In this document: in pieces, positions 9,146-61,979 of the stretch
How positions within the stretch are numbered: position 1 is the first letter of the stretch
Layout: each line of letters opens with the position of its first letter
Virus record (IMG/VR): IMGVR_UViG_2643221865_000003
Origin: an uncultured virus (IMG/VR IMGVR_UViG_2643221865_000003)
Taxonomy: Duplodnaviria; Heunggongvirae; Uroviricota; Caudoviricetes
Reading direction: 5' to 3' (one strand)
DNA: 64,000 bases
Program-made: the position numbers and the translations under genes
Notes under the pieces: model-generated
Seen by the model: the letters and a program-made list of their open reading frames with translations, nothing else
What the model was told of the DNA's origin: nothing
The model's database searches: none

Positions 9146-9164
9146 GCCACACACCTACGAACGC
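9146..9164 (+). promoter_or_regulatory. class B promoter-like motif GCCRCAYACCTA-N6/7-start, representative copy
   Basis: Copies at about 9146, 20992, 25795, 29945, 36057, 38170, 39318, 42829, 44377, 60283 (+) and 15376-15388, 41603-41615 (-); 9 of 12 directly abut an ATG. Confidence 0.75.
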
Positions 9165-10115
9165 ATGACCAAGAACCAGAAGCCAGTCACCCGCCGCGAC
9201 CTCGGCCTCGAGCGACAGGACGGCCACTCCTCCACTGAGTTCGCCGCCCACAAGAACACCGCCGCATCGGCCGCAGCCGCACCCCTCACCGCTCCGCAGC
9301 AGGCGATCGCCGACGCGGAAGCAGCCTGGTGGAACGCCATCGACGAGAAAGCTCGGGTGATGATCGCCGCCCAGAAGACTGTCGACGACGCGAAGGTGGC
9401 GCTGGTCAGCGCGCGGATCACCGCCGTGTACCCGGATGCTGTGTCCGCGAAGTTCGAACTCACCGGCGTGCAGAGTGGCAAATCCCTGCGACTTGTCGAG
9501 GTGACCGCCGGGAACGGATCTCAGACGTTCACACTCCAGGACGGCGACGCCACCCTCTACAACCAGGTCGCCCTCGACCTGAAGAACCTCCATGACGGCT
9601 TCGACGCCATCCCGATCGACACCGGAGGGTGGGGCGGCCGAGGATTCGGCACCATCAACCTCGGCCACAAGCACCGCGCCGACGCCGCCTTCGGAACAGC
9701 TGCCGGTGAACTCGACATGCGCAAGATGATGCCCGGCATCCTGGTGGAAGCCCGGAAGCTGCAGAAGCTCGACGACGAGAAGCTCGCCACGATCACCGAC
9801 GATGACCTGAACTTCGTCTACAACACGACGCTGGCTTTGGCGCTCGGAGACCTGCGGACGATGGAAGCGTCGTACCTGGTCGGGCAAATCCCTGAGGACA
9901 TGGACGGGTTCCTTCGCGAGGTGACCGTTGACGCTCCAGTCATGCATGGGATCTTCGCCCAGCTGAAGGATTGGGGCGTGCTGAGGGACGAGAACCTCGC
10001 AGCCGTCAGCCGAACGCAGGCCACCTGGCTGTACAACTCGTATGTCAAAGGGCCGCTGGAGGACTTCGCCTATGACCTGTGGGCGAAGTACGGAAACGAC
10101 ACCGAAGAGGGCTGA
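9165..10115 (+). CDS. hypothetical protein (class B set)
   Basis: Leaderless after class B motif; N-terminal ERQDGHSSTEFAA. Confidence 0.8.
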   Translation: MTKNQKPVTRRDLGLERQDGHSSTEFAAHKNTAASAAAAPLTAPQQAIADAEAAWWNAIDEKARVMIAAQKTVDDAKVALVSARITAVYPDAVSAKFELTGVQSGKSLRLVEVTAGNGSQTFTLQDGDATLYNQVALDLKNLHDGFDAIPIDTGGWGGRGFGTINLGHKHRADAAFGTAAGELDMRKMMPGILVEARKLQKLDDEKLATITDDDLNFVYNTTLALALGDLRTMEASYLVGQIPEDMDGFLREVTVDAPVMHGIFAQLKDWGVLRDENLAAVSRTQATWLYNSYVKGPLEDFAYDLWAKYGNDTEEG

Positions 10116-10179
10116 CGGTCAGTCAACGCAAAGGGGTCCGCATCCGCGCATGTAGGTGCTGAAAGAGAGGTCCCCTCCC

Positions 10180-10386
10180 ATGGACAGCACCGAACTCGAG
10201 TACAAGGCGAAGTGGCGGAACAACCGCACCGGCCGCACGTACTTCATCAACGCCTGGCACGACACCGACGGCGGATTCATCCAGCTGCTGTCTGATGCTG
10301 AGCCGCAGATGCTGCACTGGCTGACCATCAAGGGGTTCCGCCGCGACTACCGACCCGTCACCGACGAGAACGAGGCATCCGCATGA
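10180..10386 (+). CDS. hypothetical protein
   Basis: Class A motif 10144, GAGG RBS. Confidence 0.7.
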   Translation: MDSTELEYKAKWRNNRTGRTYFINAWHDTDGGFIQLLSDAEPQMLHWLTIKGFRRDYRPVTDENEASA

Positions 10387-10820
10387 TCGACATCGACACC
10401 CTCCCCACTGCTGAGAACAGCATCCCCAACGTCACCCCCCGCGCCGAGGAGATCTACGTCATCGAGACCGGCTACCCGTCCCTCGAAGACGTCGGCTTCG
10501 GCGAGTACACCTATACCCTCGCCACCGAGGAGGGGTTCTTCACCTCTCCGCGAGCAGCGCAGCTAAGGGTCGACGAGCTGAACGACTACGCCGACGACTA
10601 CGCCGTGCACGTGAACACCATCGAGCGGTCCAACTGGAAGGCCCGCGACACGTACAACCAGCTGATGGACCAGCGCGCCTACCTCCGGAAGAACGGGGTG
10701 ATCCCCGCGGGCGACGAGCCGCGCGAGCCGATCCCCGCGAAGCCGCGCGTGCACCACGAGTGGCTCATCATCATGCAGAAGAACCTGCACCGCGCCACGA
10801 AGCTCGGAGCCGCCGCATGA
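10383..10820 (+). CDS. hypothetical protein (family with 12263 and 13866)
   Basis: ATGA coupling; G(F/Y)(F/Y)T...A....D.LN and HEW motifs. Confidence 0.75.
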   Translation: MIDIDTLPTAENSIPNVTPRAEEIYVIETGYPSLEDVGFGEYTYTLATEEGFFTSPRAAQLRVDELNDYADDYAVHVNTIERSNWKARDTYNQLMDQRAYLRKNGVIPAGDEPREPIPAKPRVHHEWLIIMQKNLHRATKLGAAA

Positions 10821-11538: not shown

Positions 11539-11562
11539 CTTCAGCATCAACGGAGGACCGCC

Positions 11563-14728: not shown

Positions 14729-15370
14729 TCAGCGTTCGATGAACCCGGCGGGGATCCCGTCGCGGTCGCGGCCGGCGAGGAACTCGCGGAGGTTGGTGAG
14801 GATCGTCTCGTGGTTGTCGCGGGTCATGCCGTCCACCTTGGAGTTGTTGTGGAACCCGTCCACGAGCTCGTCGACTGTGGTCGGGAACGTCCCGCCGAGG
14901 TCTTCGGTGTCGAGCTCGATGATGACGTCCTGCTCCTCCCAGTTGCCGGTGCCGCCGGACTCCAGGCGGGCGTCGTCGAACGCGTCACGGATCCACTGGT
15001 CGATGACGTTGGTCCGGTCGTTCAGGTAGGCGGTGGAGTCCGTGACTCCGGACGGGACCGCGTCGTAGAAGTCGAACCGGACGTGGCCGGTGGCGACGAG
15101 CTCCGAGCCGCCGGTCTCCTCGTAGATCGTGGCGCTCTCATCGGTGCGGAACACCGCGATCGTGTGCAGGGCGTCGTCCTCGACGTCGAACATCCACTCG
15201 GTTCCCTCGCTGATGTCGTCGAAGTCGCTGGCCATCGTGATGTTCAACCCAGCTTCAGGGGAGGTCTGCACGTTCGCGTACCTGCCGTCCTGGTTCCGCA
15301 GGACACCCTCATCGAGGTAGGCGAATGTCCCATCCGGGTTGGTGTGCTTGGGGCGGTTGATGTTGTTCAT
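14729..15370 (-). CDS. acidic hypothetical protein (class B set)
   Basis: Leaderless after minus-strand class B motif; N-terminal HTNPDGTFA and RNQDGRYA. Confidence 0.8.
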   Translation of the reverse strand: MNNINRPKHTNPDGTFAYLDEGVLRNQDGRYANVQTSPEAGLNITMASDFDDISEGTEWMFDVEDDALHTIAVFRTDESATIYEETGGSELVATGHVRFDFYDAVPSGVTDSTAYLNDRTNVIDQWIRDAFDDARLESGGTGNWEEQDVIIELDTEDLGGTFPTTVDELVDGFHNNSKVDGMTRDNHETILTNLREFLAGRDRDGIPAGFIER

Positions 15371-15460
15371 GACCTGTAGGTGTGTGGGCTGGTTCCAGCG
15401 ATTGCCTGGCTGTCCGCACATGTAGGGGGCGAAGAACACTCTCACCGAAGGAGCACGCCT

Positions 15461-20956: not shown

Positions 20957-21010
20957 CGAGCCGGCAGCCTCGCGACAACAACCCGTTCGCGCCCACACAC
21001 CTACGGTCGC

Positions 21011-21733
21011 ATGAACTCCAAGAAGATCCCGGCCAACGCCGAGCTGTGCACCTCCGATTGCCGGAACAGCAGCGGGACGAAGATCCAGTACCACTTCCGC
21101 GGTGAGCAAGCGCTGACCGACTGCCGAAACCGACGCGACAACGACGTCAGTCTGGTGGCCGACCTTCAGGTGATCGAGCCGCTCAACGCCTCCTTGGGCG
21201 ATCTCACCGTCATCTGGTCCCGCTACGTCGGTGGTCTCATCGGTCACGAAGAGGACATCGAAGACGTCACCGAGATCCCCGATGACGTGATGCACGCGGT
21301 GCACGCGGCAGCGCTCCAGCACCTCAGCTCCGCCACCCTCGACGTGGAGACGTTCATCCGACACACCGGTGTGAAGGTCAACTACAAGAACCCGCACAAT
21401 GACGAGCTCATGCGAGCAGTCCGGCTTCTCCATTCTCTGACTCGTGTTGGTAGAGCCAAGACCGAGCTCGCCCACCCGGAATACGACGAGGCCGCCGTGT
21501 ACGAGAACGCGCCGTTCGCTTGGCCGGACGTCTACGAGGACGAAGCCTGGGACGCCGCGCAGGCGACGTTGGACAAGCGTGACCGTCTCCGCAGCAAGCA
21601 GCCCAGAAACGACGAGATGACGGCGCTGCAGATGAAAGAGAAGCAGAAGGCTGACGCCTGGCAGGAGAAGCAGTACGCCGACCGGACGGCGCCTCGGAAG
21701 CGTGGTTTCTGGTCCCGGCTGATCGGCCGATAG
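21011..21733 (+). CDS. hypothetical protein with N-terminal Cys/His module (class B set)
   Basis: Leaderless after class B motif; IPANAELCTSDCRNS.GTKI.YHFRGE.ALT.CR. Confidence 0.8.
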   Translation: MNSKKIPANAELCTSDCRNSSGTKIQYHFRGEQALTDCRNRRDNDVSLVADLQVIEPLNASLGDLTVIWSRYVGGLIGHEEDIEDVTEIPDDVMHAVHAAALQHLSSATLDVETFIRHTGVKVNYKNPHNDELMRAVRLLHSLTRVGRAKTELAHPEYDEAAVYENAPFAWPDVYEDEAWDAAQATLDKRDRLRSKQPRNDEMTALQMKEKQKADAWQEKQYADRTAPRKRGFWSRLIGR

Positions 21734-25791: not shown

Positions 25792-25834
25792 CCCGCCGCA
25801 CACCTACGTTTCGAAACCCTGAGGAGGGAGACGA

Positions 25835-26452
25835 ATGACCGAACAGAAGCGCGGCAACAAGACCGTGATCACCAACCCCGACGGCACCACACAGATCGTC
25901 GACAACGCTGGCGCGTTCGCCGGCAAGGACGCGCCTGGCGCGAGCGAGTCCAGCGTGTCGAACCCGCTGGCCGGCCTCGGCAGCAAGCCGGTGCCCGCGT
26001 CTGCGTTCACCGAGCAGTTCACCGGCCACTTCAAGAAGGACGGCGTCTACCGCCCGAACGAGTTCCCGCAGTTCGCCACCGCGGATGAGATCCCCGATGA
26101 CATCCCCGCGAACCGAATCTGGTCCGCCACCTCCACCGCCGGCGAGGTCGCGTACACCCCGGGTGTGCAGCCCGGTGCGACGTCCTTCACGGTCACCGAT
26201 GAGCCGCACTCGTTCAACACCCCGTACACGTTCGACCAGTTCGACAACTTCTACGAGCAGGTCGAGACGATGGACGGCGATTTCGCCCAGTACGACACCA
26301 TCGACCAGGTACCCGACGGGTACGACCCGTCGGAGATCTTCGCTCTACGCGACAGCAACGTCACCGACCCCCGCGGCCCCGAGTACGAGGTGGAGTTCGT
26401 CCACGGGTACGACCAGGACGCCATCTACTACACGGTCGCGGTCGCGAAGTAG
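25835..26452 (+). CDS. acidic hypothetical protein (class B set)
   Basis: Class B motif, GAGGAG RBS; N-terminal NPDGTT..DNAGAFAGK. Confidence 0.8.
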   Translation: MTEQKRGNKTVITNPDGTTQIVDNAGAFAGKDAPGASESSVSNPLAGLGSKPVPASAFTEQFTGHFKKDGVYRPNEFPQFATADEIPDDIPANRIWSATSTAGEVAYTPGVQPGATSFTVTDEPHSFNTPYTFDQFDNFYEQVETMDGDFAQYDTIDQVPDGYDPSEIFALRDSNVTDPRGPEYEVEFVHGYDQDAIYYTVAVAK

Positions 26453-26952: not shown

Positions 26953-28248
26953 TCACCTCGCGTACGCCACTGCCAGTTCATCCCAGTGCGTGGTCGCTCG
27001 CGGGCTGAGCTGCTCCCGTCGCATCTTCCATACCGGACCTTTCCGGATCCCACCGAGCCCGAGCCCGATCGCGCCGGTGCCGACCTTCTTGGTGACTGAG
27101 TCGATGACCGCCCCCAGGTCTTTCTGGTCGTACAGCGGGGTGAACGGTTCCAGGAATGCATGCGACGCCTTCGGCGTGATCCCGGTCAGGATGACGCCGG
27201 CCCGCACGTACTTCGCACCCGGCACCAGCTGCGGACCCAACGACTGGATGGCTGCTTTCGACAAGGTGATCGGGTCGTCCGTCGGGACGGAGAGTGTGAC
27301 GGACACGGCCGGGTAGGACTGGACGGCGTCCGGGTTGAACCCGTGCGTGCCCGCGAACACTTGCAGGTGCTGGGCGACGGACCCTTGCTTCCTGAGCCTG
27401 GCTGATGCCCGTTGGGCGTAGACGGACAGCATCTGCTCCATGTCCTCCGCCCGGGTGACCGGCTGCCCGAACATGCGGGAGTAGATCAGCTGCTCCTTCG
27501 CCGCCCGCGTCGGTTCGGTGACGATCGCGTCCGTGCCGCGGAGCTCGTACACGGTGCGCTGCAGCACGACGCTGAACTTGGTGCGGATTAGCTTCGGGTC
27601 GGCGTCCCGCAGGTCCTTGATCGTGTGGATGTCGAGGACGTTGAGTCGCTTCTCGGTGCGGCCGGCGACACCCCAGATTTCGGTCACCGGCAGGCTGTCC
27701 ATGATCACGTCCTGCTGGGCGGGTGTGTACGCATCCCAGTGAGCGACGCCGCCCAACGCGGGTGTCTTCTTGGCGCCGTGGTTCGCCAGCTTGGACAATG
27801 TGCGGCTTCCGCCGAAGCCGACGCAGACCGGCAGGCCAACGTTCCGGAGGACCGCGGCGCGGATCTTCCGTCCGGCGGCTACGAGCTCGTCGACGTTCCC
27901 CCGCAGATGGACGAAAGCTTCATCAATACTGTACGGCTCAACACCGGCACAGAACCGGCCGATCACTTCGAATGCCCTCGAGCTGAGGTCGCCGTACAAC
28001 TCGTAATTGCTGGACCGGTGCTGCAGGTTCCAGTGTTTCGCGAGCGGCGCCAACTGGAACCATGGGTCGCCCATCTTGATGCCGAGGGCTTTCGCTTCGG
28101 CGCTGCGGGCGACGACACACCCGTCGTTGTTGCTGAGGACGACGGTGGGGACGCCATGAAGTTTCGGGTCGAACACCCGCTCGCAGGACACGAAGAAGTT
28201 GTTGACGTCGACGAGGCCTATGCGGCGGGGGCCTCGGTCACCGGACAT
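26953..28248 (-). CDS. umuC: Y-family DNA polymerase V subunit UmuC
   Basis: [31 protein letters not shown]-terminal W.MRRE.LSP..TT.W. Confidence 0.95.
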
Positions 28249-42780: not shown

Positions 42781-42846
42781 CCGGTCCTTTCTGCGGAAGC
42801 TCCAGTATCCAGGTCGGCTGCGACATCGGCCACGCACATACGCACA

Positions 42847-43614
42847 ATGGCGATCACCCGAAACCGTGCAGGTCAGCTGTACTCCACCGCAGACGGCCGG
42901 TGGGTCGAAGACCAGACCGCGGCCGCGAACGAGGCCGCCCTTCGCGACCCCCTGCCGGAGCTCACGTTGGGCGGACAGACGGCAGCCGTACCGGATGCTT
43001 CCAAGGGTGAAGTTGAGGCGTTCGCCGCCAGGATCTCAAACAGGCCTTTCGGGTCTGACGGGTTCACCGTGGATATCGACGGGATCTACCCGTGGAGGTC
43101 GGGCGATGGGCCCTGGTCGACCGAGTTCAGCGGCATCGTCCGTGACGCTGGCGGTGAGGCAGTCGGCTCGTTCACGCGCACCTTCGACGGTGAGCTCGGC
43201 ACTGTCGCCCACAACAACCTCTACATCGATGAGGACTTCCAAGGGACTGGGTTTGCGACCGAGTTCAACGCGGCGGCGTTCGAGCTCTACGCAGAGATGG
43301 GCTACACAGCTGTAACCACTATCACCGACGATGATGGCGGGTACGTGTGGGCGAAAGCCGGCTCCGGGTTCGAGTTCAATAGCGACCACGACATGGCCGA
43401 CGGAGCGCGCCTGTCAATCGCCCAGTCCATCAATCGGCATGCAGGAGGGCCGGATCTGGACGTGTTGCTTGCAATGGCCGACGAGTTCAGGTCAGGCGAT
43501 GGTGGCACGACCATCCATGACATCGCAGCGCTCCGCACGAAGGAGAACCCGAACCTCGGCAAGGACATCCTCACGGGCATCAACTGGCCTGGAATCAAGA
43601 GATTCGCTAACTAG
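42847..43614 (+). CDS. GNAT-like domain protein (class B set), paralogue of 21738
   Basis: Leaderless; N-terminal RNRAGQL..ADGRW; NNL.I...QGTGFAT.FN.AA.ELYAEMG. Confidence 0.8.
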   Translation: MAITRNRAGQLYSTADGRWVEDQTAAANEAALRDPLPELTLGGQTAAVPDASKGEVEAFAARISNRPFGSDGFTVDIDGIYPWRSGDGPWSTEFSGIVRDAGGEAVGSFTRTFDGELGTVAHNNLYIDEDFQGTGFATEFNAAAFELYAEMGYTAVTTITDDDGGYVWAKAGSGFEFNSDHDMADGARLSIAQSINRHAGGPDLDVLLAMADEFRSGDGGTTIHDIAALRTKENPNLGKDILTGINWPGIKRFAN

Positions 43615-44359: not shown

Positions 44360-44395
44360 CGCGCTGAACCTGGCGGGCCACATACCTAAGGAGGT

Positions 44396-45331
44396 ATGCC
44401 CTCCAACACCGTCACCCGTCTGCACCCGGACGGCTCTTGGCGACTCATCGCGAACGGTCAGTTCACGTTCGCGCCGGGCAGCAGATTCGAACCGGCCGTC
44501 GAGGTCAAGCATGTCGCGACCCTGGAGAGCTGGTTCGCATCAGAGGACTCCGGAAGCCCGGACGAGTTTCTTCTCACATCCCTCGGGCTGCATCATGAAC
44601 CAGAGACGCAAGCCGAACTCAGCGCGGCCGCCTCCGGCCTCCCCGCCATCGCCGATGACATCTCCGACACCGTGTTCGCCCTGGGTGTGGATGGAGTCTC
44701 CTCCGCCGTACACAACCTCCTCGCGGATGCCGCCACGCTGCGGTTCCGGATCATCGATGACGTCTTCACCCTCACCGGCGCCGAAGACCGGGACGGCACC
44801 ACCATCTGGCGTCACAACACCACTGACACCCGGACGGACCGAGCCGTGAGCACAGCCGTGGCGGAGTTCGCCCCGTTCCTCCGGCACGGATCCAACCTCC
44901 GGTTCGGCCTGGCGGAGCACCCCGACGGGTCCGTCACAGTTCCCGCGGCCGCAGACGACGATGACAGCTACGACCACATGGACCGTCAAGGACTGGACGG
45001 CATCCGCGCGAAGATCGCACGCGTCGCACCGCTCACCACCGCCGTCAAACGGCTCGCCGCCGTCACCGCGGAGCGCGGCATCAGGGAGGCAGCCCTGGAC
45101 TGTGTTCCGAACGTGGCCACCGTCGAAGTCATCCACGACAGCGGGCGCGCAACCATCGGGACTCTCCGCGATCACAACAGCTCCGCCCTCCACCCGACCG
45201 GGCGGTTCTGGGACGCAACCGAACCGTTCGAGCATCTCCTCAGCCACGTCAGCCCAGACACCATCACCCAGTACGCAGCAACCCCGGACGGCACCGTCCG
45301 CACCTGGACCGGGTACATCCTCGGCACCTGA
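44396..45331 (+). CDS. hypothetical protein (class B set)
   Basis: Class B motif; N-terminal LHPDGSW..ANGQFTF. Confidence 0.75.
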   Translation: MPSNTVTRLHPDGSWRLIANGQFTFAPGSRFEPAVEVKHVATLESWFASEDSGSPDEFLLTSLGLHHEPETQAELSAAASGLPAIADDISDTVFALGVDGVSSAVHNLLADAATLRFRIIDDVFTLTGAEDRDGTTIWRHNTTDTRTDRAVSTAVAEFAPFLRHGSNLRFGLAEHPDGSVTVPAAADDDDSYDHMDRQGLDGIRAKIARVAPLTTAVKRLAAVTAERGIREAALDCVPNVATVEVIHDSGRATIGTLRDHNSSALHPTGRFWDATEPFEHLLSHVSPDTITQYAATPDGTVRTWTGYILGT

Positions 45332-46186: not shown

Positions 46187-46782
46187 CCACCCCACGGGTG
46201 TACGGGAACGCCGGCGGGTCGCTCGAGGGCGGAACGTTCGCTGCGAACAAGCACGTCGCCCGTTTCGGAGCCGCCGGAGAGAAGAAGACCGCGGCGTTGC
46301 TCGCTGAGCTGGCCGCCACGGGCCCCACTGTCCTGCATGACCTGAAGATCCCGAACCAGAAGTTCACCGCGAACATCGACCACGCCATCGTCTCCGGCAA
46401 CAAGGTCGTCCTGGTGGACACGAAAGCGTGGGCGGGGAACTTCTACTGGACGTTCGCCGGAGCCACCTACCGCGGCCTGAAGCGTTTCGCCACCGTCGAC
46501 AAGCAGGGGAAGACCACATTCCCGGCCGAGAAGAAGACGTTGCCGATGGCGAAGGACGCGATCGCTGCGTACCTCGGCGTCCCGAAGGAGAACATCCGGC
46601 TCGCCCTCATCATCTGGCCGACCGGGAAGAAGCCCCTCACCACATGGCTGATGCGTTCACCTGGCGGAGCCACAGTCCTGAACGGGCCTGTGCTCACTGT
46701 CGGACGACTCCGCTCCCTGGCAGGTAAGAAGGAAGCGAACGAGTTCATCGTCCGGAAGCTCGCCCAGCTGGTGATCCGCTAG
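46183..46782 (+). CDS. NERD (nuclease-related domain) protein
   Basis: G..GE, VLHDL, NIDH, VDTK motifs. Confidence 0.85.
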   Translation: MTTPRVYGNAGGSLEGGTFAANKHVARFGAAGEKKTAALLAELAATGPTVLHDLKIPNQKFTANIDHAIVSGNKVVLVDTKAWAGNFYWTFAGATYRGLKRFATVDKQGKTTFPAEKKTLPMAKDAIAAYLGVPKENIRLALIIWPTGKKPLTTWLMRSPGGATVLNGPVLTVGRLRSLAGKKEANEFIVRKLAQLVIR

Positions 46783-46784
46783 CT

Positions 46785-47438
46785 GTGAACGAATCTCACC
46801 ACTCGCCGCCGAGAAGCAGTGCGTCCGTGCTTGGTGAGATCAAAGCGACCGTAGACAGGCATGCTCGGAACTTCGAGGCTGCCGTGGGGCAACGAATGGT
46901 CGACATGGAGCTCGACAACCACGACCACCACCTGGCCTATCGGCTACTTGGGGTGGGATCGACAGATGGGCAGTCCATCGACCGACATCAGAACACTGGT
47001 CGATTCCTCTACCGGCACGCCGGGTCACTCATGGAAGAGGTCACCATCGCCTGCTTCGCACACGCCTTCCCCGGGTCTGGAAAACAGATGATCGACAACA
47101 CTGTCGGGACAAAACCCGCGCAGTTCGAGATCGACTGCCTCGTCGGACAGGACGCGATTGAGATCAAGTGGCGCGACGCGACGACGGACGGAGATCACGT
47201 CTCCAAGGAGCTGGCCCGACTCACGACAATCGCGGCAGCGGGCCTTCGGCCGGTTCGGCTGATGTACTTCGAGCCCCAGAGGCAGCAAGCGCGTAAGATC
47301 CAAGGTCGTCTCCGCGAGAGCTACCTGCAATCGGGCGGTGAGTACCATAGCGGCGACGACGCGTGGATCTACGTCGAGAGCCGAACCACCGTCGACCTCC
47401 GCTCCGTCCTCGAAGATCTTTCATCGCACCTTCGCTAG
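46785..47438 (+). CDS. ApaLI-like type II restriction endonuclease
   Basis: QN.GRFLY..AGS.EE and FEIDCLVG..A.EIKWRDATTDGDH, recalled family signature. Confidence 0.75.
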   Translation: MNESHHSPPRSSASVLGEIKATVDRHARNFEAAVGQRMVDMELDNHDHHLAYRLLGVGSTDGQSIDRHQNTGRFLYRHAGSLMEEVTIACFAHAFPGSGKQMIDNTVGTKPAQFEIDCLVGQDAIEIKWRDATTDGDHVSKELARLTTIAAAGLRPVRLMYFEPQRQQARKIQGRLRESYLQSGGEYHSGDDAWIYVESRTTVDLRSVLEDLSSHLR

Positions 47439-47837: not shown

Positions 47838-50800
47838 ATGGCTTCGAGAGCTCAGACTCCAGAACCGACTACGAACATCGCACCGTACGTGGCGCTGCTC
47901 GGCATCGCCGGCGCCGGCGTCGCGCTCTTCTACCAGTACCCCGGCTTCGCCCTCCTCTACATCGCGTTCATCGCGGCCGGCCACCTCGCCACCCCGCCCG
48001 TCCTGACCGGCCTGATGGGCCGCACCAAGGACTCCGGTGCCAAGCCCGGCAACCCGCAGGAGCAGAAGCAACTGCAGACATACCGGCTGTGGTCGAGCCT
48101 GAAATGGTCGCTGATCACCCCGAAGCCCACCTGGATGCCGTTCTGGCCGGGAAAGCGACGCCAGCCGGTCGGATGGATGGCGAACTCGAAGTTCAAGCCG
48201 CTCCAGATCCTCTCCGGCGTCACCCTGTCCCAGGTTGAGACGCAGTTCACGTTCTACATCGCGCTGGGCGCCGCCGTCATCGCATCCGCGTTCCCCACCA
48301 CCCCGCTCGGCGAATACGCCGGAATCGGGCGGATCGCAGACGCCGTCGGCATCTACATCGTCATCATGCAGGTGTCCGCCGCATTCCGGCAGAACTCCGC
48401 ACCTGAGGATGCAGCACCGTCCGCAGGGTTCGAGCACTACCTCGCCATGTTCAACAACCCTGAAACTCGCGGCAAGGCGATCGGGGCGGGAGTCGCTGCG
48501 ATCATCGTCTCCGGCATCGCCTGCCTCGGCTTCGGCATCTGGGCCACCAAGTACGACCTCTGGTACGACGTGTACCCGACCCAGCTGTGGCAGATCACGC
48601 TGGGCATCTGCGCCGTCGTGACCGGTCTGATCCTCCACGCGGCGACCCGCGGATCCGCGCTTCAGGAATGGCGGGACCTGGTGCAAGCCCGCGCCGAATG
48701 GGAGCCGCGCTGGCAGGCGTCGGAGTTCAAACTGGACACCCCTCCTCGGATGACCTCGCACAAGCTGATCGCCGACATGGTCACCGTCGACTCATTCGAA
48801 GTGCCACCGACAGGCGGCGGCGCTTCCAACCTCATGATGATGACGTCACAGCTGAGCATCCTCATGGGCTCCGGCCGGAAGATCGCCATCCTCGAAGAGC
48901 CGGACGTGGACGTGCAGGGGCAGCCGGTTCCCGGGTCCATGCACCCGCTCCGGTTCCGGGTCGTCTGCTGGCTCACCGGCGAGCTGCCGGACCTGTCAAC
49001 CTCCGACGTGGACCCGGAACTGCTGAACCTCGCCGTCGCCAGCGCATTCACATGGGCTGTCACCGACGACGGCAAAATGGGCCGCTGCATCCCGATGGCG
49101 ATCGACAACATCGCCGCCGGAGTCGCCGACGCCGGCGACCAGCCCGTCTGGGAAGGCGAAGCCGCGACCGGCGAGGACATGTACGAGGACATCGACGCTG
49201 ACGGTGAGCCAGAAGTGTTCCAGCCGGGCCCGCCGCCCGTGCAGCGGATCCCCGGAGCGTGGGCCTCCCAGTGGGCGTTCCCTGACGGTGGACAGCTCGG
49301 CTACGTCCAGATGTCGCAGGGCGGCATCGGTGCGTACCTCGGCGTTGAAGTGATCGTCGACGCGAAAGCGGGCGTCGCCTACTTCGGTGCACTCACATCC
49401 GGAGCTCCGGAGTTCACCGACCCGGGCCTCGCGAAGCACTTCGTCGAGATGGAAACCGAACAGCGATGGAACCGACGCTGGACCGACATTCTCAAAATGG
49501 GCGCGAGGCAACCGGTCCCGCAGCACAACGTGTACATGGAGGAGAAGATCCCCGTCGGCCCTGGTGGTCGCAAGGAGACCATCAAGTGCCAGCCGATGGT
49601 GATCCCACAGGGTGTGTCCATCCTGGAGTACCTGCAGCCGCCGAAGCCGTACGAGCCGCAGCTGTCCACCACCCTGGTCGCCGCACCGTTCGTCTCCATC
49701 ACCGGCCTCAGCGGACTGTCCGGCATCAAGCCGGGCGACCGTCACCAGCAGGCGATCGCCGTGTACTGGTCAGAGCGCCAGCTGCCGAACAGCCCCGACC
49801 AGGTGATCCCGTCCGACAACAACCGGGCCGCCGGCTGGCTCCTCGCTGCGCTCGTCAACAACGCCTTCGATGTGTCCCGACTCGCCCGCCCGGAACTGAT
49901 CGACGCGCAGCCGATGTCCGAGAAGACCAGCCGCGGTCACATGTGGAAGATGCGCATCAAGCTGTACGGCGGCGTCACCATCGGCGAGGTCCGCAACAAC
50001 CAGCAGAAGATCAAGCAGACGCTGCGGTCCCAGTGGCTCCGCGTCGCTGACGCCGGCGAAGGTGTCGTCGTCCTCGTCGCCGGCGTCGACCCGGCAAGTG
50101 CCGGCTTCAAGTTCGCTGAGGTCCGCGGACGCCGGATGCCGCACCAGGATTACGTCACCAGCCTCGACTGGGAGCAGGCGTTCCTGGTGTCGAAGGTGGT
50201 CGGCGACGGCGGAAAGCTGCCCGTGCTGTTCAAGTCGGCGACGCTGCCGAAGAACGAAGACGTTGCCGTCCTCGACTTCGAGCTCCCCGCCGGTGTCGAC
50301 CCCCGCCAGATCAAGTCCGCGGTGCCCGCGCTCCGGTCAGCGACCGACAACTCCTACGTCGACGTCCGCCCGTCCCCGAACGGCGCGAAGCAGGTGCGTC
50401 TGCTGGTGGCGAAGAACAGCCCGCTCCCGAACGGCGCCCCTGTCGACTGGGAAGTCATGGAGCAGGCCGACGGCGTCCTCCCGTTCGCCACGGGTGTCGA
50501 AGGTGAACCGGTCGTGTTCAACCCGCGAGAGACCCCTCATGTGCTGGTCGCCGGAATGTCAGGTGGTGGAAAGGCGCAGCCGCTGTCTGCTCTCATCCCT
50601 GTGCCGGTCTCCGAACGGTTCCCGACCGGCTGGGCCACCAACCGTGACCTCACCGTCGGTGACATGGTCTACACGGCGAACGGCGCCACCACCCGGATCA
50701 TCGACTTCTCCCCCGTTACCGTCGAGACCGCCTACGACATCACCTTCGCCGACGGCCAGGTCGTCCGCACCGGAGCGAACCACCTGTGGAAGGTGACCCG

Positions 50801-53684
50801 CACCAACGGCCTCACCGGCGCCCCAGAACGCGGCGACGACTTCCGCGCACGGGCCAGGAGCCTCCGAGATGCAGCTGCCGGCTACACGGCTGGTACGGTC
50901 GCCTCCCTCGAAGCGATCGCACAGATTGCCGGCTACGCGCCGCTGTCCCTGTTCCAGGTGGAAGAGATCCGGCCGCTTGCCGTGAAGGCACTCCGCCCCA
51001 CCCAGAAGCCAGCACAGGTCTTCGACGGAAACGCCATCCACGCCTACCTCCGCTCAGCGGCGATCAAGCGCGGCGGAACCACCACCTTCGCAGGCACGTC
51101 ATTGACCGTTGAGATGATCGACAAGTCTGACCTCCGCGGCCAGTGGCTCTCCATCCGCGACCTCGCCGAGCTCGTCATCGGAGAAGTCTCCGCGCGCCGG
51201 CACCGGTACGCGGCGAAGAGCGTCGTCACGAACAGCGGCGCCGAAGCCCGACCCGGCTACGCAAAGTCGCTGGTCACCGCCTACCCCGTCGATGAGGTCC
51301 TGCATCTGCTCGCCGACCGCCTCGACACCCAGGCCGGCCGACGCCCGGCAGAGACGATCCTCGACACTAAGGGGATCGCCTCCGCGAAGCACAGCTACTC
51401 CGTCCGGGTCGCCTCACCCATCCCCGGCGACGATGTCGAGCTACCGGTCTCCCCAGGCCTGCTCGGAGCGATGGTCGTCGTCGAAGGTGCCCGCATCACA
51501 CCGGAGTACCTCCGCGCCTCCGAGGCGCAGCGACGGGAGCTGCTGGACTCCATCGCAGCCGCCTCCGGCTTCCCGTCCGACGACGTGGTCACCCTCATGC
51601 TCGGCGACGCCGACGTAGCTGAGAACGTCACAGAGCTGGTCCGATCCCTCGGCCACTACGCCACCACGACCGGACGAGTCGTCGCGTACAGCACCCAGAC
51701 CCGGAACCGGATCGTGGACGTCACCGAGGTCGGCACCGACGAGATGCGCTGCATCATGGTCGAAGACCCGGAGCACCTGTACCTCACCCACCAGTTCATC
51801 CCCACCCACAACTCCGTCTCCCTCCAGGTGTTGCTCTACCCGGCCGCGTTGCAGGGGAACGAGATCTACGTCGTAGACCCGACCAAGGGTGGTGCCGACT
51901 TCGGTTTCGTGAAGCCGTACGCGAAGGCGTTCGCCACGACTGTCGATGAGGCGGCAGCGTTGATGCGTCACCTGTACGGCGAAGTGGTGCGCCGCAAGGA
52001 GCTGAACATGACGCACAACGTCGGTTCGTACCGCGACCTGCCGGAGGAGATCCGCCCCGCCCACGTGTACCTGCTGATGGATGAGTTCACCTCGTTGATG
52101 CAGCCGGACCCGGTGTCGAAGACCCCGTCGGACGACCCGGAAGTGGAAGCGGACCGTCTCGCTCAGCTGCAGTCGAACACCGCGAAGCAGTACATCGGAA
52201 CGATGACCGGAAAGATCGCCCGTGAGGCCCGATCCGCCGGCGTCACCCTGATCCTCGCCACGCAGAAGCTGACCGCGAAGATGCTCGACACCATCCCGGG
52301 CAGCGGTGACCTGAAGACGAACCTGAGCCGCATGCTGCTCGGAAACGCCACCCAGGGCGACCGTGCGTCCGCTCTGAAGAACTTCACCGACGCCCCGTCC
52401 CTCGGAGACACCATCCCGAAGGGCCGCGGCCTGTACGAAGGCGAAGGCATCGCCGAGATCATCCAGGTGTGGTTCGAAGCATCCCAGGAGACGTACGCGG
52501 CGAAGCTCGCGGAACGTCTCACACCGCTCACCCCTGACGAGCAGGTGGACCTGCACGCCCTCATCCCGAAGCCGACGCAGGTGTCTGAGTTCAGCATCGA
52601 AGGCGGCGCCCCGCCGAAGGATGACACCGCAGCGGCGCAGCCGTCCGGGGAAGGCGAGACCATCCACGTCATCGACATGGGCGAGATCGAGGTGGACTTC
52701 GCTGCGTTCCTCGCAGAGATGGAAGCCGAGCAGGAAGAAGCGGTCGACGTCGCCACCGCCGCGGTCGACGAAGCCGGAGAGTCGATCCCGATCCCCCGCG
52801 GTGACTACGAGATCAGCGAGTTCGGCGGGCAGGCGTTCGATGAGGACGTCGCAGTCGATGAGGAAGATGAAGAAGAGGACACCATGACCGACCACCAGCC
52901 CGCCGTCCGGGTCAACAACCACCCGAACCAGCTGTTGCTGCTCTCCGTCGACGGTGTCATCGCCCCGCTCGGAGGGAACCCCGGAGACCCCGGCTACGGC
53001 GACTGGCAACCCGTCGACGTCCCCGGCACCGGGGTCCGCGGTGTCAGCCGTTCGATGCTCCGACGCATCGGTGAGATGAACGCGAAGATCGTCTGGGCGA
53101 CCGACTGGCAGGGTGACGCGAACAGCATCCTCGCCGAAGCTGTCGGCCGCGGCGAACTGCCGGTCCTCACACCGGCCGGGGAGTCCGAGTACGGCTGGTG
53201 GAAGATCGACGCTGTCCTCCGGCACCTCGAAGCGAACCCCAGCATCCGCCGTGTCTTGTGGGTCGACCACAAGCTCCCGGAGGAGGACCCGATGGGTCTC
53301 ACCTACGGCGAGCTCGCTCAGGAGGCGCTGGAGGACACCGGTGTGGAGCTGCTCCTCGCCCCCACCCAAGGCAGCCTCGGGTTGCGGATCTCCGAGCTCG
53401 AATACATCGAATGGTGGCTCGACCAGGGTGAGCACTTCACAGCGGCGGAGGCCGCGGCTGAGCTGCTGTACCAGCCGGCCGAAGAGCCCTCTGGGCCGGC
53501 GGTCACCGATGACGGGTTCGCGTCCATGGAGGATGCGCTCGACTGGGCCGAGGAGCTCTTGCCGAAGGGCCCCGTCGCGCCGTCTTCGCTGGAAGCGGCG
53601 CCGGTCTTCGATGACGACGACGACGACCCCGGATTCACGAAGCCGCAGTCCCGCCGCACCCTGAACGTCGACCGTGACTTGTGA
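47838..53684 (+). CDS. large membrane-anchored FtsK/SpoIIIE ATPase with intein and C-terminal HAD-like domain
   Basis: AGGAGG RBS; N-terminal TMs; PHVLVAGMSGGGK[intein]S; YLLMDE; ARSAGV.LILATQ; C-terminal SVDGV/WATDW/WWK/WVD. Confidence 0.9.
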   Translation: MASRAQTPEPTTNIAPYVALLGIAGAGVALFYQYPGFALLYIAFIAAGHLATPPVLTGLMGRTKDSGAKPGNPQEQKQLQTYRLWSSLKWSLITPKPTWMPFWPGKRRQPVGWMANSKFKPLQILSGVTLSQVETQFTFYIALGAAVIASAFPTTPLGEYAGIGRIADAVGIYIVIMQVSAAFRQNSAPEDAAPSAGFEHYLAMFNNPETRGKAIGAGVAAIIVSGIACLGFGIWATKYDLWYDVYPTQLWQITLGICAVVTGLILHAATRGSALQEWRDLVQARAEWEPRWQASEFKLDTPPRMTSHKLIADMVTVDSFEVPPTGGGASNLMMMTSQLSILMGSGRKIAILEEPDVDVQGQPVPGSMHPLRFRVVCWLTGELPDLSTSDVDPELLNLAVASAFTWAVTDDGKMGRCIPMAIDNIAAGVADAGDQPVWEGEAATGEDMYEDIDADGEPEVFQPGPPPVQRIPGAWASQWAFPDGGQLGYVQMSQGGIGAYLGVEVIVDAKAGVAYFGALTSGAPEFTDPGLAKHFVEMETEQRWNRRWTDILKMGARQPVPQHNVYMEEKIPVGPGGRKETIKCQPMVIPQGVSILEYLQPPKPYEPQLSTTLVAAPFVSITGLSGLSGIKPGDRHQQAIAVYWSERQLPNSPDQVIPSDNNRAAGWLLAALVNNAFDVSRLARPELIDAQPMSEKTSRGHMWKMRIKLYGGVTIGEVRNNQQKIKQTLRSQWLRVADAGEGVVVLVAGVDPASAGFKFAEVRGRRMPHQDYVTSLDWEQAFLVSKVVGDGGKLPVLFKSATLPKNEDVAVLDFELPAGVDPRQIKSAVPALRSATDNSYVDVRPSPNGAKQVRLLVAKNSPLPNGAPVDWEVMEQADGVLPFATGVEGEPVVFNPRETPHVLVAGMSGGGKAQPLSALIPVPVSERFPTGWATNRDLTVGDMVYTANGATTRIIDFSPVTVETAYDITFADGQVVRTGANHLWKVTRTNGLTGAPERGDDFRARARSLRDAAAGYTAGTVASLEAIAQIAGYAPLSLFQVEEIRPLAVKALRPTQKPAQVFDGNAIHAYLRSAAIKRGGTTTFAGTSLTVEMIDKSDLRGQWLSIRDLAELVIGEVSARRHRYAAKSVVTNSGAEARPGYAKSLVTAYPVDEVLHLLADRLDTQAGRRPAETILDTKGIASAKHSYSVRVASPIPGDDVELPVSPGLLGAMVVVEGARITPEYLRASEAQRRELLDSIAAASGFPSDDVVTLMLGDADVAENVTELVRSLGHYATTTGRVVAYSTQTRNRIVDVTEVGTDEMRCIMVEDPEHLYLTHQFIPTHNSVSLQVLLYPAALQGNEIYVVDPTKGGADFGFVKPYAKAFATTVDEAAALMRHLYGEVVRRKELNMTHNVGSYRDLPEEIRPAHVYLLMDEFTSLMQPDPVSKTPSDDPEVEADRLAQLQSNTAKQYIGTMTGKIAREARSAGVTLILATQKLTAKMLDTIPGSGDLKTNLSRMLLGNATQGDRASALKNFTDAPSLGDTIPKGRGLYEGEGIAEIIQVWFEASQETYAAKLAERLTPLTPDEQVDLHALIPKPTQVSEFSIEGGAPPKDDTAAAQPSGEGETIHVIDMGEIEVDFAAFLAEMEAEQEEAVDVATAAVDEAGESIPIPRGDYEISEFGGQAFDEDVAVDEEDEEEDTMTDHQPAVRVNNHPNQLLLLSVDGVIAPLGGNPGDPGYGDWQPVDVPGTGVRGVSRSMLRRIGEMNAKIVWATDWQGDANSILAEAVGRGELPVLTPAGESEYGWWKIDAVLRHLEANPSIRRVLWVDHKLPEEDPMGLTYGELAQEALEDTGVELLLAPTQGSLGLRISELEYIEWWLDQGEHFTAAEAAAELLYQPAEEPSGPAVTDDGFASMEDALDWAEELLPKGPVAPSSLEAAPVFDDDDDDPGFTKPQSRRTLNVDRDL
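50574..51812 (+). other. intein (413 aa, Ala1, class 3 signature) inserted between K and S of Walker A
   Basis: Starts AQPL; block B TGANHLW; block F MRCI; ends THN before Ser+1. Confidence 0.9.
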
Positions 53685-59385: not shown

Positions 59386-60279
59386 ATGGAAACCCGCCGC
59401 CGGCAGTACCTCACCAACCCAGGTGAGTCGCTCGTCCTTCCCCTCGTCGCGCACGACGTCATCGACCGTCGCATCGAATGGGCCGCTACCGTCGGAACCC
59501 CCGGAATCGACATCGTCACCTCCGCCCTCGTCTCCATCCCCATCCCCCTTCGAGCCCCCGGCGCCAAGCACCACCCCGACACCAACGCGGCGGCGTTCTG
59601 GCACCCGATCCTCTGGCTCGGAGACCACCTCGCCCACCCGATCCCCGGCGAGCCTCTCGATGTCTGGGCTGTTCGGGTCGCACTCGAACTCACCTACACC
59701 GGCGCCTACGACGCCGAGACCGGCACCTTCGTCGACATCCTCTCCATCTTCGAGCTCGACTCCGACGACCCGGTCGTCCAGGCGCGGATCACCGAATGGC
59801 TGGCCGGCGCCCCAGACAAGGAACTCGACAGCGTCACCTTCGCTGCAGCATTCGGTGCCCCCGAAGATCTCGGCCAGCAGCTGCTTCACGCCACCGAGTA
59901 CACCGACTACCTCCGACCTGCATCCTGGGCAGTCATGACCAACAGCCTCCTCGAGATCAGCTACGCCGCCGCGGCCGACCCGGAGATCAACGCCGAGATC
60001 CTCGCAGCCGTCGCAACCCGCATCATCCACCTGGCACAAGCCACCCTCGGCGAGTCCATCCCTTCCGTCGAAGGTGAAGTGCCCGCCCACTCGCTCTGGC
60101 AGCAGGTGCTCGACGACACCGTCCACTGGGAAGCCCGCCCCATGCAGGCGAACATCGACGGGCCCTGGAACGCACTCATCGAATCGCTCAGTTCCATCCG
60201 GTCCGACTACTGGGTGTTCGTCGACGCGCTCCGCGAAGTCGAGAACGACGCGCCTGCTCGCACGGCCGAAACCGTCTAG
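59386..60279 (+). CDS. hypothetical protein
   Basis: Downstream of class C motif 59323; strong codon bias from ATG 59386. Confidence 0.75.
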   Translation: METRRRQYLTNPGESLVLPLVAHDVIDRRIEWAATVGTPGIDIVTSALVSIPIPLRAPGAKHHPDTNAAAFWHPILWLGDHLAHPIPGEPLDVWAVRVALELTYTGAYDAETGTFVDILSIFELDSDDPVVQARITEWLAGAPDKELDSVTFAAAFGAPEDLGQQLLHATEYTDYLRPASWAVMTNSLLEISYAAAADPEINAEILAAVATRIIHLAQATLGESIPSVEGEVPAHSLWQQVLDDTVHWEARPMQANIDGPWNALIESLSSIRSDYWVFVDALREVENDAPARTAETV

Positions 60280-60300
60280 GCGGCCGCACACCTACGCTGC

Positions 60301-61245
60301 ATGACAATCACGCAGCCCCGTCTCGCCGGCGGACAGTTCACCTTCTGGGACGGCCTCCCGTCCGACGCCGCACTCTCCCACCGCAACCCCGACGAGGTCT
60401 TCACCGCTACCGGCGGCGAAAAGGACGGCCGCTGGTTCGTCCAGTCGCTCCAGACTCACCCGGCACCGGTGCAGGATGGCGCGTTCATGCGCTACACCCT
60501 CCACATCGGCGGCCAGCCGCACGTCAACGCTCGCATGTCCACCGCCGCAGCTCTCGTCCCCGACGAAGTCAAGGCAGAAGCCACCGAGAAAACCCACGAG
60601 CTCGCCACCGCCGGAGAGCGCTTCACCGTCCTCTCCGAAGTCGACGGGACCGTCCGCATCGACGAGCTCCGCGGCTACGTCAACGGCTCCAGCGTGTACG
60701 GGCTGGTGAAGAACAGCCGGACCAAGGGCATCGCCCTCGACAAGCTGAACATCCTCGCCGTCGAGAAGGGGTACGGCAAGCAGGAGAAGCTCGCAGCCAA
60801 GTTCGACCGAGTTGCCTCCACCGTCCCCGTCACCGAGGAAGTCACCTTCGACGGCATCCCCGACCTCGGCGAAGACTACTCCGAGACCACCGAGTTCGCC
60901 GCCGCCTACCTCGTCGACGGCCCCAACTTCGGCACAGCAGCACCCGGCTGCGTGTTCCTTGCCACCGACATCCAGGCCGAGGACGGCATCGTCAACGGAT
61001 TCCTCTGGGCCCCGAACGACACCCAGCTGTTCAGCGAGTTCGGCTCCCAGTACACCGACAACGTGCACTACGACGAGGAGAACTCCCGCGGCATCAAGGT
61101 GACCAAGACCCGCCTCGGCCTGAAGCGCATGGGCGGCCGCATCCGCGACTTCGACCCCGCCAAGGTGGACCTCAACACGTTCTACGGGACCGTCCCCGAG
61201 GACCGCGCCGATGGCTACCGCTTCATCATGGGACAGGACAGCTGA
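60301..61245 (+). CDS. hypothetical protein (class B set)
   Basis: Leaderless after class B motif; N-terminal QPRLAGGQFTF. Confidence 0.8.
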   Translation: MTITQPRLAGGQFTFWDGLPSDAALSHRNPDEVFTATGGEKDGRWFVQSLQTHPAPVQDGAFMRYTLHIGGQPHVNARMSTAAALVPDEVKAEATEKTHELATAGERFTVLSEVDGTVRIDELRGYVNGSSVYGLVKNSRTKGIALDKLNILAVEKGYGKQEKLAAKFDRVASTVPVTEEVTFDGIPDLGEDYSETTEFAAAYLVDGPNFGTAAPGCVFLATDIQAEDGIVNGFLWAPNDTQLFSEFGSQYTDNVHYDEENSRGIKVTKTRLGLKRMGGRIRDFDPAKVDLNTFYGTVPEDRADGYRFIMGQDS

Positions 61246-61979
61246 TGGCTGACGTCAACGACCGCAGCCGGCACGACAACGGTCAGTTCGCCACCGAAGC
61301 CGAGACGAAGACCGCCGCTGGACAGTTGGACGGTCTGACGGCCGCCCCGACAATCTTCACGATCGACGCCAGCATGGTCCGCGCCGGCGACTCCGTGTTC
61401 CTCGACGGCGAGTTCGTCGGCCACGCCATGCAGGTGTCCCCGAAGATCGGCGGCGGCACCTCCATCCGCATCCACAACGGCGGGATCGTCACCGCGGACG
61501 AGGACGACGTCGTCGGGATCGAACGAGCCACCCAGCCGATGGAGTGGGACGAGAACCTCACCTACTGGGACAAGGTCTACTACGCCAACCACCAGCTCAC
61601 CGACACGGATGGGCTCCAGCACATCCTCGACACCGAAGCTGAAGACGACTTCATGTTCGCCGTCGCCAGCCACCGGAACGCCACTCCCGACCAGATCGAG
61701 CAGGCCTCGAAGCACCACTCCCTGTGGGTGCGGACCGCTGCACTCGACAACCCGCTCTGCCCGCAGCACACCGCCAAGCGGATCCTCGCCGAATCCCTCC
61801 ACCTCGCTGAGGCGGAACGCGCAGTGATCCACAAGGAGGGCCGGAACCCGATGACCCCGTACCGCGAGGAGCAGGTCAAGGCCTACGTGAACCTCGCCGA
61901 CCTTGCCACAGCGCGTCTCGATGAGTTCCTGGCAGCAGCCCGCATCAACGAGATGCTCACGGCTGCCGAAGCCGAGTAG
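61245..61979 (+). CDS. hypothetical protein with LRV-like repeats (class B operon)
   Basis: TGATG coupling; N-terminal SRHDNGQFA; VASHRNATP, ALDNPLCP. Confidence 0.8.
   Translation: MADVNDRSRHDNGQFATEAETKTAAGQLDGLTAAPTIFTIDASMVRAGDSVFLDGEFVGHAMQVSPKIGGGTSIRIHNGGIVTADEDDVVGIERATQPMEWDENLTYWDKVYYANHQLTDTDGLQHILDTEAEDDFMFAVASHRNATPDQIEQASKHHSLWVRTAALDNPLCPQHTAKRILAESLHLAEAERAVIHKEGRNPMTPYREEQVKAYVNLADLATARLDEFLAAARINEMLTAAEAE

Follow-up and report, generated by a model that had tools for sequence, protein, structure and literature searches.

The uncultured virus record IMGVR_UViG_2643221865_000003 of IMG/VR (Caudoviricetes), a stretch of 64,000 nucleotides referred to here as the window, raises the question of why a scattered set of otherwise unrelated proteins should share both a short box just ahead of the gene and a short peptide just inside the protein. 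The original prediction, made from the letters of the window, described twelve such boxes (class B), each leading a transcription unit, and a related glycine-x-aromatic peptide near the N-terminus of ten of the lead proteins and of one coupled downstream protein, 61245. The peptide was proposed to mark cargo that is loaded into a particle or transferred with the DNA. Analysis of the whole replicon and of other genomes has confirmed that the G-x-aromatic peptide on the lead proteins is real. From sequence comparison, it appears to be a degenerate or eroded local form of a longer motif that is intact in related actinobacterial plasmids and in giant proteins, and a role as a cargo handle is tentatively ranked first among its possible functions.

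The window occupies positions 380655-444654 of contig C5 of the genome G000. C5 is 701 kb long with 65.2% GC, against 68-69% in the other contigs of at least 65 kb, and has a backbone in common with actinobacterial plasmids; it was treated as a megaplasmid-like replicon. Genes and starts were taken from an in-house codon-score caller, which placed 90 genes in the window and 854 on C5.

The class B box and the N-terminal peptide on the replicon

The class B box has the consensus GCCRCACACCTAC, lies mostly 5-6 nt upstream of the ATG and is common to the ten gene starts named in the original prediction. A weight matrix built from these same ten sites, circular in the window and not elsewhere, found the twelve boxes that had been claimed for the window (starts 9146 to 60283), 94 on C5 (13.4 per 100 kb) and 25 in the 3.84 Mb of the other ten contigs. 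The distance to the ATG on C5 was 5 nt in 37 and 6 nt in 23 of the 94 cases, 60 of 94 together, and no conserved -35-like block was found upstream of the C5 boxes. The box is plausibly a putative leaderless promoter. Since the previous stop codon lies only 10-15 nt ahead of many boxes, it may instead be a signal for RNA processing or translation. Searched for exactly, the 13-mer GCCACACACCTAC turned up 21 times in G000, and each of 400 genomes from the same family had 0-1 copies; in its exact form the box thus belongs to the C5 replicon alone. Two sigma-70-family proteins encoded on C5 (102730-102945 and 303087-303287) are candidates for reading plasmid-specific boxes; the T7-like RNA polymerase family gave no match on G000, but the control genomes were equally silent. 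Two boxes at 559650 (-) and 559675 (+) of C5 form a divergent pair, back to back and 12 nt apart, each 5 nt ahead of an ATG. Along C5 the strand of the boxes changes blockwise (minus at 17-57 kb, plus at 59-90, minus at 134-271, plus at 369-498 and minus at 511-693 kb), which suggests large co-oriented gene arrays.

A lead protein could be assigned to 83 of the 94 boxes. Because the original prediction had been made on the window, the 70 lead proteins of at least 100 aa encoded outside it served as a held-out set. A strict pattern, G[QRKTSEDH][FYW] within residues 6-50, was present in 41 of these 70 and in 62 of 634 proteins from all other C5 genes (Fisher p 4e-20), the start codons of the control genes being approximate, as given by the codon-score caller. 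It was present in 6 of the 12 lead proteins of the window and in 288 of 3249 chromosomal proteins. Moved to residues 101-145 of the lead proteins, it matched 9 of 75. Shuffling residues 6-50 a thousand times gave a mean of 9.4 matches (sd 2.9, maximum 19) against 47 observed in 82. The enrichment over other and over shuffled proteins on which the proposal depended has thus been borne out. The core is also tied to the spacing of the box, being found in 42 of 63 lead proteins at a spacing of 4-6 nt and in 5 of 20 at other spacings (p 0.0016). Its glycine falls at residues 11-33 (median 21), and the aromatic position on C5 is variable, with F, Y, W and sometimes L. Tagged proteins are somewhat more acidic than other C5 proteins (median pI 4.72 versus 5.24). 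About seven downstream genes of class B clusters that are led by a Shine-Dalgarno (SD) sequence, 61245 among them, are tagged as well, so that the tag extends beyond the lead genes.

Proteins behind the tag are mostly without a recognised family. Pfam families are absent from most window proteins, and likewise from 54 among 64 lead proteins encoded elsewhere on C5 that were scanned. No Pfam family matched at E<=0.01 to back the ParB-like and GNAT-like labels of the original prediction. The LRV repeats that it had listed among the lead-gene domains belong to 45352, a second gene. In the tagged C5 proteins with known domains, these begin only behind the tag (ArdC-N at residue 50, the head domain of a CCA-adding enzyme at 76 and LigA domain Ia at 66), so the tag is an appended N-terminal extension. 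A portable N-terminal extension carried by unrelated proteins is therefore supported. Other elements, too, have tagged proteins of the ArdC-like, CCA-adding and DprA kinds (P0013, P0014 and P0020), and the C5 set includes a protein that combines ArdC-N with an M78/MPTase domain.

Two familiar kinds of N-terminal signal were considered and rejected. In a prepilin leader, G stands directly before F or M and is followed by about 20 hydrophobic residues with E5; here polar residues follow the aromatic one, as in GRFAGKVPTASNS and GQFATEAETK. Tagged proteins likewise lack the hydrophobic core after a basic N-region of Sec and Tat signal peptides and the twin-arginine motif of the latter. Hydrophobic starts occur only in untagged lead proteins, namely 36101 in the window and 261294, 601955 and 671450 on C5.

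The canonical motif in plasmids, phages and giant proteins

The canonical motif covers about 17 residues, [WF]DExxHPRx3G[KRQ][FW], and is often followed by K or by a Gly-rich linker. Related actinobacterial plasmids and islands, which have a backbone with paired FtsK-like ATPases, carry it intact, with one N-terminal copy on 2-16 proteins each, mostly from apparently leaderless genes. An ortholog of the 60301 protein of the window, 37-40% identical to it, is encoded on the 149-kb plasmid of Glaciihabitans sp. INWT7, and the alignment of the pair spans the tag, QPRLAGGQFTF in 60301 facing HPRIADGTFTD. That plasmid has nine boxes of the form GCCRCACAnnTAn, all at 93-119 kb next to Tad-like pilus genes, and eight tagged proteins, all encoded at 92.9-119.0 kb beside Tad and FtsK genes. 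Their starts follow the scheme x3-8 [DE]HPR x2-5 G x F x [DE]K x Q x x P E x x L. On C5, K is enriched at G+4..6 (14 of 47 tagged lead proteins versus 21 of 350 controls; p 6e-6), as is R or H at G-7..-3 (30 of 47 versus 128 of 350; p 3.5e-4), so the flanks of the C5 tag match those of the canonical one.

Relatives of the FtsK gene described below led to Ornithinimicrobium murale and Isoptericola croceus, in which the same N-terminal tag stands on apparently leaderless genes with different boxes. Three profiles of the tag were used: A3, from 14 tags, A4, from 35 tags, and the later A6. The A3 profile matched 16 proteins in I. croceus, 9 in O. murale, 3 in a Cellulomonas metagenome-assembled genome and 2 in Aeromicrobium, with best matches reaching E 1e-19, and found no tags in C. 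cellasea. The A6 profile matched 16 proteins of pACHL01 of Pseudarthrobacter chlorophenolicus, in the form RQP[KR]G[IV]PxGGQFAAT.H.EP, and 7 of Curtobacterium pS16; on pMP7017 of Bifidobacterium it found none at E<=0.05. When a 40-aa tag was searched by tblastn, plasmids gave Glaciihabitans, a weak Curtobacterium match and otherwise chance IS21 matches, and phages gave no match. In G000 the canonical profile had a single tag match (E 3.3e-5), to an open frame of 55 aa on a chromosomal contig (C1:416805-416894, -); this may be a remnant of another element.

A CCGCRCAC core stands about 10 nt ahead of the ATG in C5, Glaciihabitans, Curtobacterium, pACHL01 and O. murale. In these plasmids the box forms a conserved unit with the apparently leaderless start and the tag, and because the box of the unit differs between lineages, element-specific control is indicated. 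Codons vary freely at the invariant P, R and G of the motif, which places selection at the level of the peptide.

Beyond the plasmids, the A4 profile was run against 1.84 billion cluster representatives and matched 1155 proteins at E<=0.001, 115 at 1e-10 and 3 at 1e-30. The best matches are giants of up to 7334 aa with 2-17 motif stretches. The best 150 matches also include 30 small single-stretch proteins, and all 30 have their copy at the N-terminus. The 145 top matches contain 490 copies with the consensus [WF]-D-E-S-K-H-P-R-x3-G-[KRQ]-[FW]-[GAT] followed by a Gly-rich stretch; the spacer from HPR to G is three residues in 457 of the 490, and at the aromatic position 434 copies have F and 55 have W, Y and L being nearly absent. 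Copies are separated by a median of 266 aa. In 54% of the 145 proteins the first copy falls among the initial 70 residues, and the last is always at least 27 residues (median 265) from the C-terminus. The motif always stands ahead of a protein module.

Pfam families were found in 16 of 23 giants scanned and in 7 there were none. The families include ART-PolyVal (7 giants), ADP-ribosyltransferase exoenzyme (4), MuF, InPase, zeta toxin and FtsK/SpoIIIE (2 each) and, among others, NUDIX, topoisomerase IB, Kinase-PolyVal and a C39 peptidase (in P0035), each in one giant. Polyvalent-type families (ART-PolyVal, InPase, Kinase-PolyVal, MuF) occur in 10 of the 16. In the remaining 6 the families are ADP-ribosyltransferase, zeta-toxin, NUDIX, topoisomerase IB, FtsK/SpoIIIE and others of a like kind. 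The multi-copy carriers are polyvalent proteins as described by Iyer et al., 2017 (PMC5512222), a class proposed there to be injected together with DNA. By proteomics, one polyvalent protein has been reported in phi24B virions in a 2026 preprint (10.64898/2026.04.10.717836).

Phage contigs carry the motif too. A protein matched by the tag profile, P0021, has three internal copies, and its relatives in IMG/VR contigs of 50-60% GC have the motif DAEFNEADHPRAEDGKFGSGGG near the N-terminus, together with LPD3, NUDIX, DUF2213, DUF5710 or topoisomerase IB. Head genes could be recognised in three of the contigs (L061, L063, L064), and there the gene of the tagged protein comes behind those for the portal and 'head morphogenesis'; in L064 it also precedes that of the major capsid protein. 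The search of plasmid and phage proteins that the original prediction had called for has found the motif in both, and its statement that similar HPRxxxGxF peptides begin some phage head-associated proteins was well founded. The motif was not found in a giant Rhizobium phage protein matching P0021, nor in MuF/ART proteins of Microbacterium and Gordonia phages. A Pfam scan of canonical tags at E<=10 gave no family. A PDB profile search with the tag gave no chain that carries the motif, its single match being a chance one (E 0.62). The main text of PMC5512222 (FTP supplements apart) does not contain the string 'HPR', and literature searches by motif strings and capsid-targeting terms returned nothing relevant. 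The motif is apparently undescribed so far.

The tagged gene is also found beside a particular ATPase gene. An FtsK/SpoIIIE-family ATPase of 569 aa (here FtsK-569; window 62068-63777, +) is encoded directly behind a tagged gene in three elements, namely C5, the Glaciihabitans plasmid and O. murale. The Glaciihabitans protein is 65% identical and lies just downstream of the 60301 ortholog. No membrane segment was seen in the FtsK-569 sequence, which matches the TcpA coupling protein (PDB 6o1w) weakly (E 0.0026). A 174-aa acidic protein (pI 4.05; C5 469803-470327) usually adjoins it. Genes for a Tad-like pilus were noted on C5, on the Glaciihabitans plasmid and on Curtobacterium pS16. The adjacency in three elements makes FtsK-569 a candidate receptor of the tag. 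The FtsK-569 homologs of Aeromicrobium and I. croceus have an intein-like insert after the P-loop (LAGLIDADG-type blocks, HNS end), the loci with such inserts being L026 7676-10936, L028 7472-10960 and L102 12381-17516, and the giant FtsK of another relative, G437, apparently has two.

Tagged and untagged units of the window

The peptide strings quoted in the original prediction for ten lead genes and for 61245 are all present in the translations. The lead proteins of the window are 205-361 aa long and lack a Pfam family except for one CHAP protein. The box at 9146-9158 (+), an exact GCCACACACCTAC, is 6 nt ahead of the ATG of 9165-10115, whose 316-aa protein has a weak tag, RQDGHSSTEFAA, at aa 17-28 (9213-9248) that fails the strict pattern; about eight GGCTC pentamer repeats stand just ahead of this box, at 9085-9125. 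On the minus strand, the box at 15376-15388 is 5 nt ahead of 14729-15370(-), whose protein has two cores, HTNPDGTFA and RNQDGRYA, at aa 9-32 (15275-15346). The box at 25795-25807 (+) is 27 nt ahead of the ATG of 25835-26452, with an SD-like GGAGGG in between, and the tag DNAGAFAGK covers aa 23-31 (25901-25927). The best match of the window is HDLLGRFAGK at aa 10-19 (29991-30020) of the protein 29964-31049, whose ATG is 6 nt behind a box at 29945-29957 (+). Next is 38206-39249, with its box at 38170-38182 (+), 23 nt ahead of the ATG; its tag, FNAQHPRRNDGTKERTLFAVK at aa 4-24 (38215-38277), keeps the canonical HPR, has an insertion ahead of the aromatic residue and reaches E 0.85 against the canonical profile.

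Two cores, PRTGTFW and RDEAGKWA, are again present at aa 10-39 (39363-39452) of 39336-40238, with the box at 39318-39330 (+), 5 nt ahead. The minus-strand gene 40782-41597(-), 5 nt behind its box at 41603-41615, has a weak tag, HRLANGRVL, at aa 13-21 (41535-41561), which also fails the strict pattern. The three matches that had been called looser are thus unequal in quality, 38206 having a canonical HPR and 9165 and 41597(-) being weak. A DUF2510 protein encoded divergently from the latter (41609-42244, +) also has a short G/W-rich N-terminal module. The protein 42847-43614 (box 42829-42841, +, 5 nt) has the tag RNRAGQLYSTADGRW at aa 5-19 (42859-42903), and 44396-45331 (box 44377-44389, +, 6 nt) has HPDGSWRLIANGQFTF at aa 10-25 (44423-44470). 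At the far end, the box at 60283-60295 (+) is 5 nt ahead of 60301-61245, whose tag at aa 5-15 (60313-60345) corresponds to LLHPRIADGTFTD at the same place in the Glaciihabitans ortholog; the coupled gene 61245-61979, without a box, has RHDNGQFA at aa 9-16 (61269-61292, +). The two lead genes that the original prediction had set apart do lack the tag. These are 21011-21733, with its box at 20992-21004 (+), and 36101-37744, which encodes CHAP and amidase domains behind a hydrophobic N-terminus and has a box of 11.4 bits at 36057-36069 (+), 31 nt upstream.

Between and beyond these units lie backbone and accessory genes. A giant FtsK/SpoIIIE-family protein of 1948 aa (47838-53684, +), with a faint TraB-like match, is kept in related elements. 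A conserved acidic backbone protein of 297 aa and unknown family (59386-60279, +) is encoded upstream of 60301. A plasmid UmuC-like gene (IMS, IMS_C, DUF4113) is paired with a UmuD-like one (Peptidase_S24) at 26953-28672 (-), and an IS605-family TnpB gene (OrfB_IS605, Cas12f1-like TNB) lies between class B units at 31216-32526 (+). At 46198-47438 (+), a NERD nuclease-related gene, also conserved among the related elements, stands ahead of one for an ApaLI-like restriction endonuclease (E 9e-61). Outside the window, C5 encodes 42 tRNAs and one tmRNA, 39 of the 43 within a single array at 5.9-22 kb; the array, at C5:5894-22352, holds 38 tRNA genes and the tmRNA gene (tag ANASRSDFALAA) in 16.5 kb. 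C5 thus has 42 of the 97 aragorn tRNA lines of the genome, which is unusual for a plasmid. Similar tRNA arrays occur in jumbo phages and mycobacterial plasmids.

Cargo handle and competing explanations

Among the possible functions, a handle for cargo that is delivered together with the DNA of the element is ranked first, as a tentative choice based on association. The ranking reflects that the carriers belong to a class thought to be delivered, that the tagged plasmid proteins would suit functions of an entry type and that the tagged genes cluster with the FtsK/Tad backbone. The motif would act as a docking handle, small and hairpin-like, by which an effector module is marked as cargo. With phages the capsid would be the delivery route, and on the plasmid the transfer apparatus would act as receptor, most likely through FtsK-569 or its small acidic neighbour. 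A role on entry into a new cell would suit the tagged ArdC-like, DprA-like, CCA-adding and ligase proteins. A docking handle fits the roughly 17 conserved residues ahead of a module, the flexible linker after them and the small turn predicted for the tag alone by AF2 (pLDDT of about 80 over residues 11-20, with an R11-F17 bridge).

Several results weigh against this reading. The canonical profile hardly finds the C5 tags (two weak matches at E<=1 among 4342 proteins; best E 0.023 in another run), so their homology to the canonical motif is argued from one ortholog pair and from the flank statistics. The core is missing from 21 of 63 apparently leaderless lead proteins, and a 19-column peptide weight matrix, dropped as overfitted, reached at least 6 bits in just 5 of 12 window proteins. 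The AF2 model of the 60301 protein, made from three sequences, is poor (mean pLDDT 48), and the apparent disorder at its residues 1-35 is weak evidence. Up to 17 copies per chain are more than a delivery signal needs. Relatives of FtsK-569 occur without a detectable tag, on pMP7017 at the threshold given above and in G437, where 20 kb contained no profile match, box or visible tag; pMP7017, a distant relative, has been described as conjugative (PMC10832533). No FtsK-569 gene was seen in the motif-bearing phage stretches examined. Tagless relatives and phage carriers without FtsK-569 together make a single shared receptor unlikely. Of the cargo proposal, then, the portable extension, the selection on the peptide and its occurrence in polyvalent proteins and in proteins encoded among phage head genes stand, and the delivery step is one of association; the suggested link to the FtsK and pilin machinery is reduced to adjacency. 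A broader form, in which the motif is a common address label for DNA-codelivered proteins, used by phage heads and by a little-known actinobacterial FtsK/Tad transfer system and read by a conserved partner, is conceivable and somewhat doubtful.

The regular placing of the motif also suits a recognition or cleavage site by which a protease would split polyvalent proteins into modules, the tag of single-module proteins being then a removable propeptide. One copy stands ahead of each module at the median spacing given above, with Gly-rich linkers after it; tagged phage proteins have parts that match 'head maturation protease' families, a C39 peptidase domain is present in P0035, and the ArdC-like M78/MPTase protein is itself in the C5 tagged set. 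Cleavage of polyvalent proteins by MPTase has been proposed (Iyer et al., 2017; PMC5512222). Some 17 conserved residues, however, exceed what most protease sites need, the 23 giants scanned have no one protease family in common, 54% of the giants also have a copy within the first 70 residues, and a cut at the copy in single-domain proteins, at residues 1-10, would free few residues. Processing is an unlikely account.

Occurrence of the same motif across differing delivery routes, in phage head modules on contigs of 50-60% GC and in actinobacterial plasmids, would be expected if it docked to a conserved machine of the recipient cell that places or activates each effector, and flexible linkers around a small predicted turn suit such docking. 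The motif is nevertheless not known to resemble any of the hub-binding peptides (clamp, SSB tail, ClpX tags), no PDB chain bearing it came up in the profile search, and NUDIX, ART and ligase effectors are unlikely to share one location. A host hub is quite unlikely.

The tie to apparently leaderless genes, and the higher frequency of the core at 4-6 nt spacing, would be accounted for by a nascent-chain element that pauses translation in the ribosome tunnel at module starts for folding or co-translational capture. The ribosome is the sole partner common to all hosts, and a conserved series of aromatic, P, R, G and aromatic residues over about 17 aa is in keeping with this idea. Yet the motif is not known to resemble arrest peptides, SD-led downstream genes are tagged too, and the limitation of the motif to delivered-effector classes is left unaccounted for; such pausing is improbable. 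Likewise improbable is a degron or stability switch that makes an effector short-lived or unstable unless loaded, perhaps by exposing the aromatic position as an N-degron after a cut. The F, Y, W and L of the C5 position are bacterial N-degron residues, and some cargo domains (ART, zeta toxin) look harmful to the producer, but the canonical position is F or W with hardly any Y or L, and no cut site is known. Chance, with the pattern arising from the A/C-rich, T/N/Q/K/P-rich composition at the start of apparently leaderless genes, could draw on the 22% of control N-termini that contain G.[FYW] alone and is refuted by the shuffles and the enrichment, by the strength of the profile matches and by the retention of the tag in orthologs and other genera with different codons.

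Several known systems can be compared, the polyvalent proteins among them. The multi-copy carriers share ART-PolyVal, Kinase-PolyVal, InPase, LPD3 and MuF with that class, the IMG/VR ones lie in head modules, and the C5 tagged set has its ArdC-N and MPTase protein. The window proteins differ in being single-module and separately encoded, short of the two or more domains that define the class, and are comparable to the 'solo' forms of PMC5512222. A resemblance in design, without sequence likeness, exists to the T4 capsid targeting sequence, also a short N-terminal peptide on unrelated proteins. The T4 internal proteins (IPI-III, Alt), which include anti-restriction and ADP-ribosylating members, carry this sequence, are packed in the head and are injected with the DNA; the peptide is removed by the prohead protease. 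Unlike in T4, capsid genes were not seen among the C5 plasmid proteins scanned. Type IV coupling systems of the TcpA type (6o1w) also have an FtsK/HerA-type ATPase beside cargo genes, but no relaxase or VirB4 was seen on the C5 replicon. The signals known to be recognised by type IV coupling proteins in their substrates lie mostly at the C-terminus and depend on charge. Class III prepilin leaders have a short N-terminal G/F stretch, and C5 encodes an A24 prepilin peptidase; they differ in having G|F where the tag has G-x-F, and no hydrophobic helix follows the tag. The demarcating motifs of polymorphic toxins (VENN, PxxxxDPxGL) are likewise short conserved peptides at the junction to a variable module; they occur once, ahead of the C-terminal toxin, whereas the tag stands ahead of every module and at the N-terminus.

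Overall, polyvalent proteins and injected effectors are already known, and a shared sequence mark for their modules was not found in the literature. A short motif ahead of each module would offer a direct route to delivered effectors in phages and plasmids, with about 50 tagged proteins on C5 alone. If the address-label reading is true, the approximately 1155 clusters would amount to a list of injected effectors, the majority with an unknown fold, and the peptide of 17 residues would be a portable loading tag. The establishment of megaplasmids of the FtsK/Tad type in new hosts would become testable with one peptide and its mutants.

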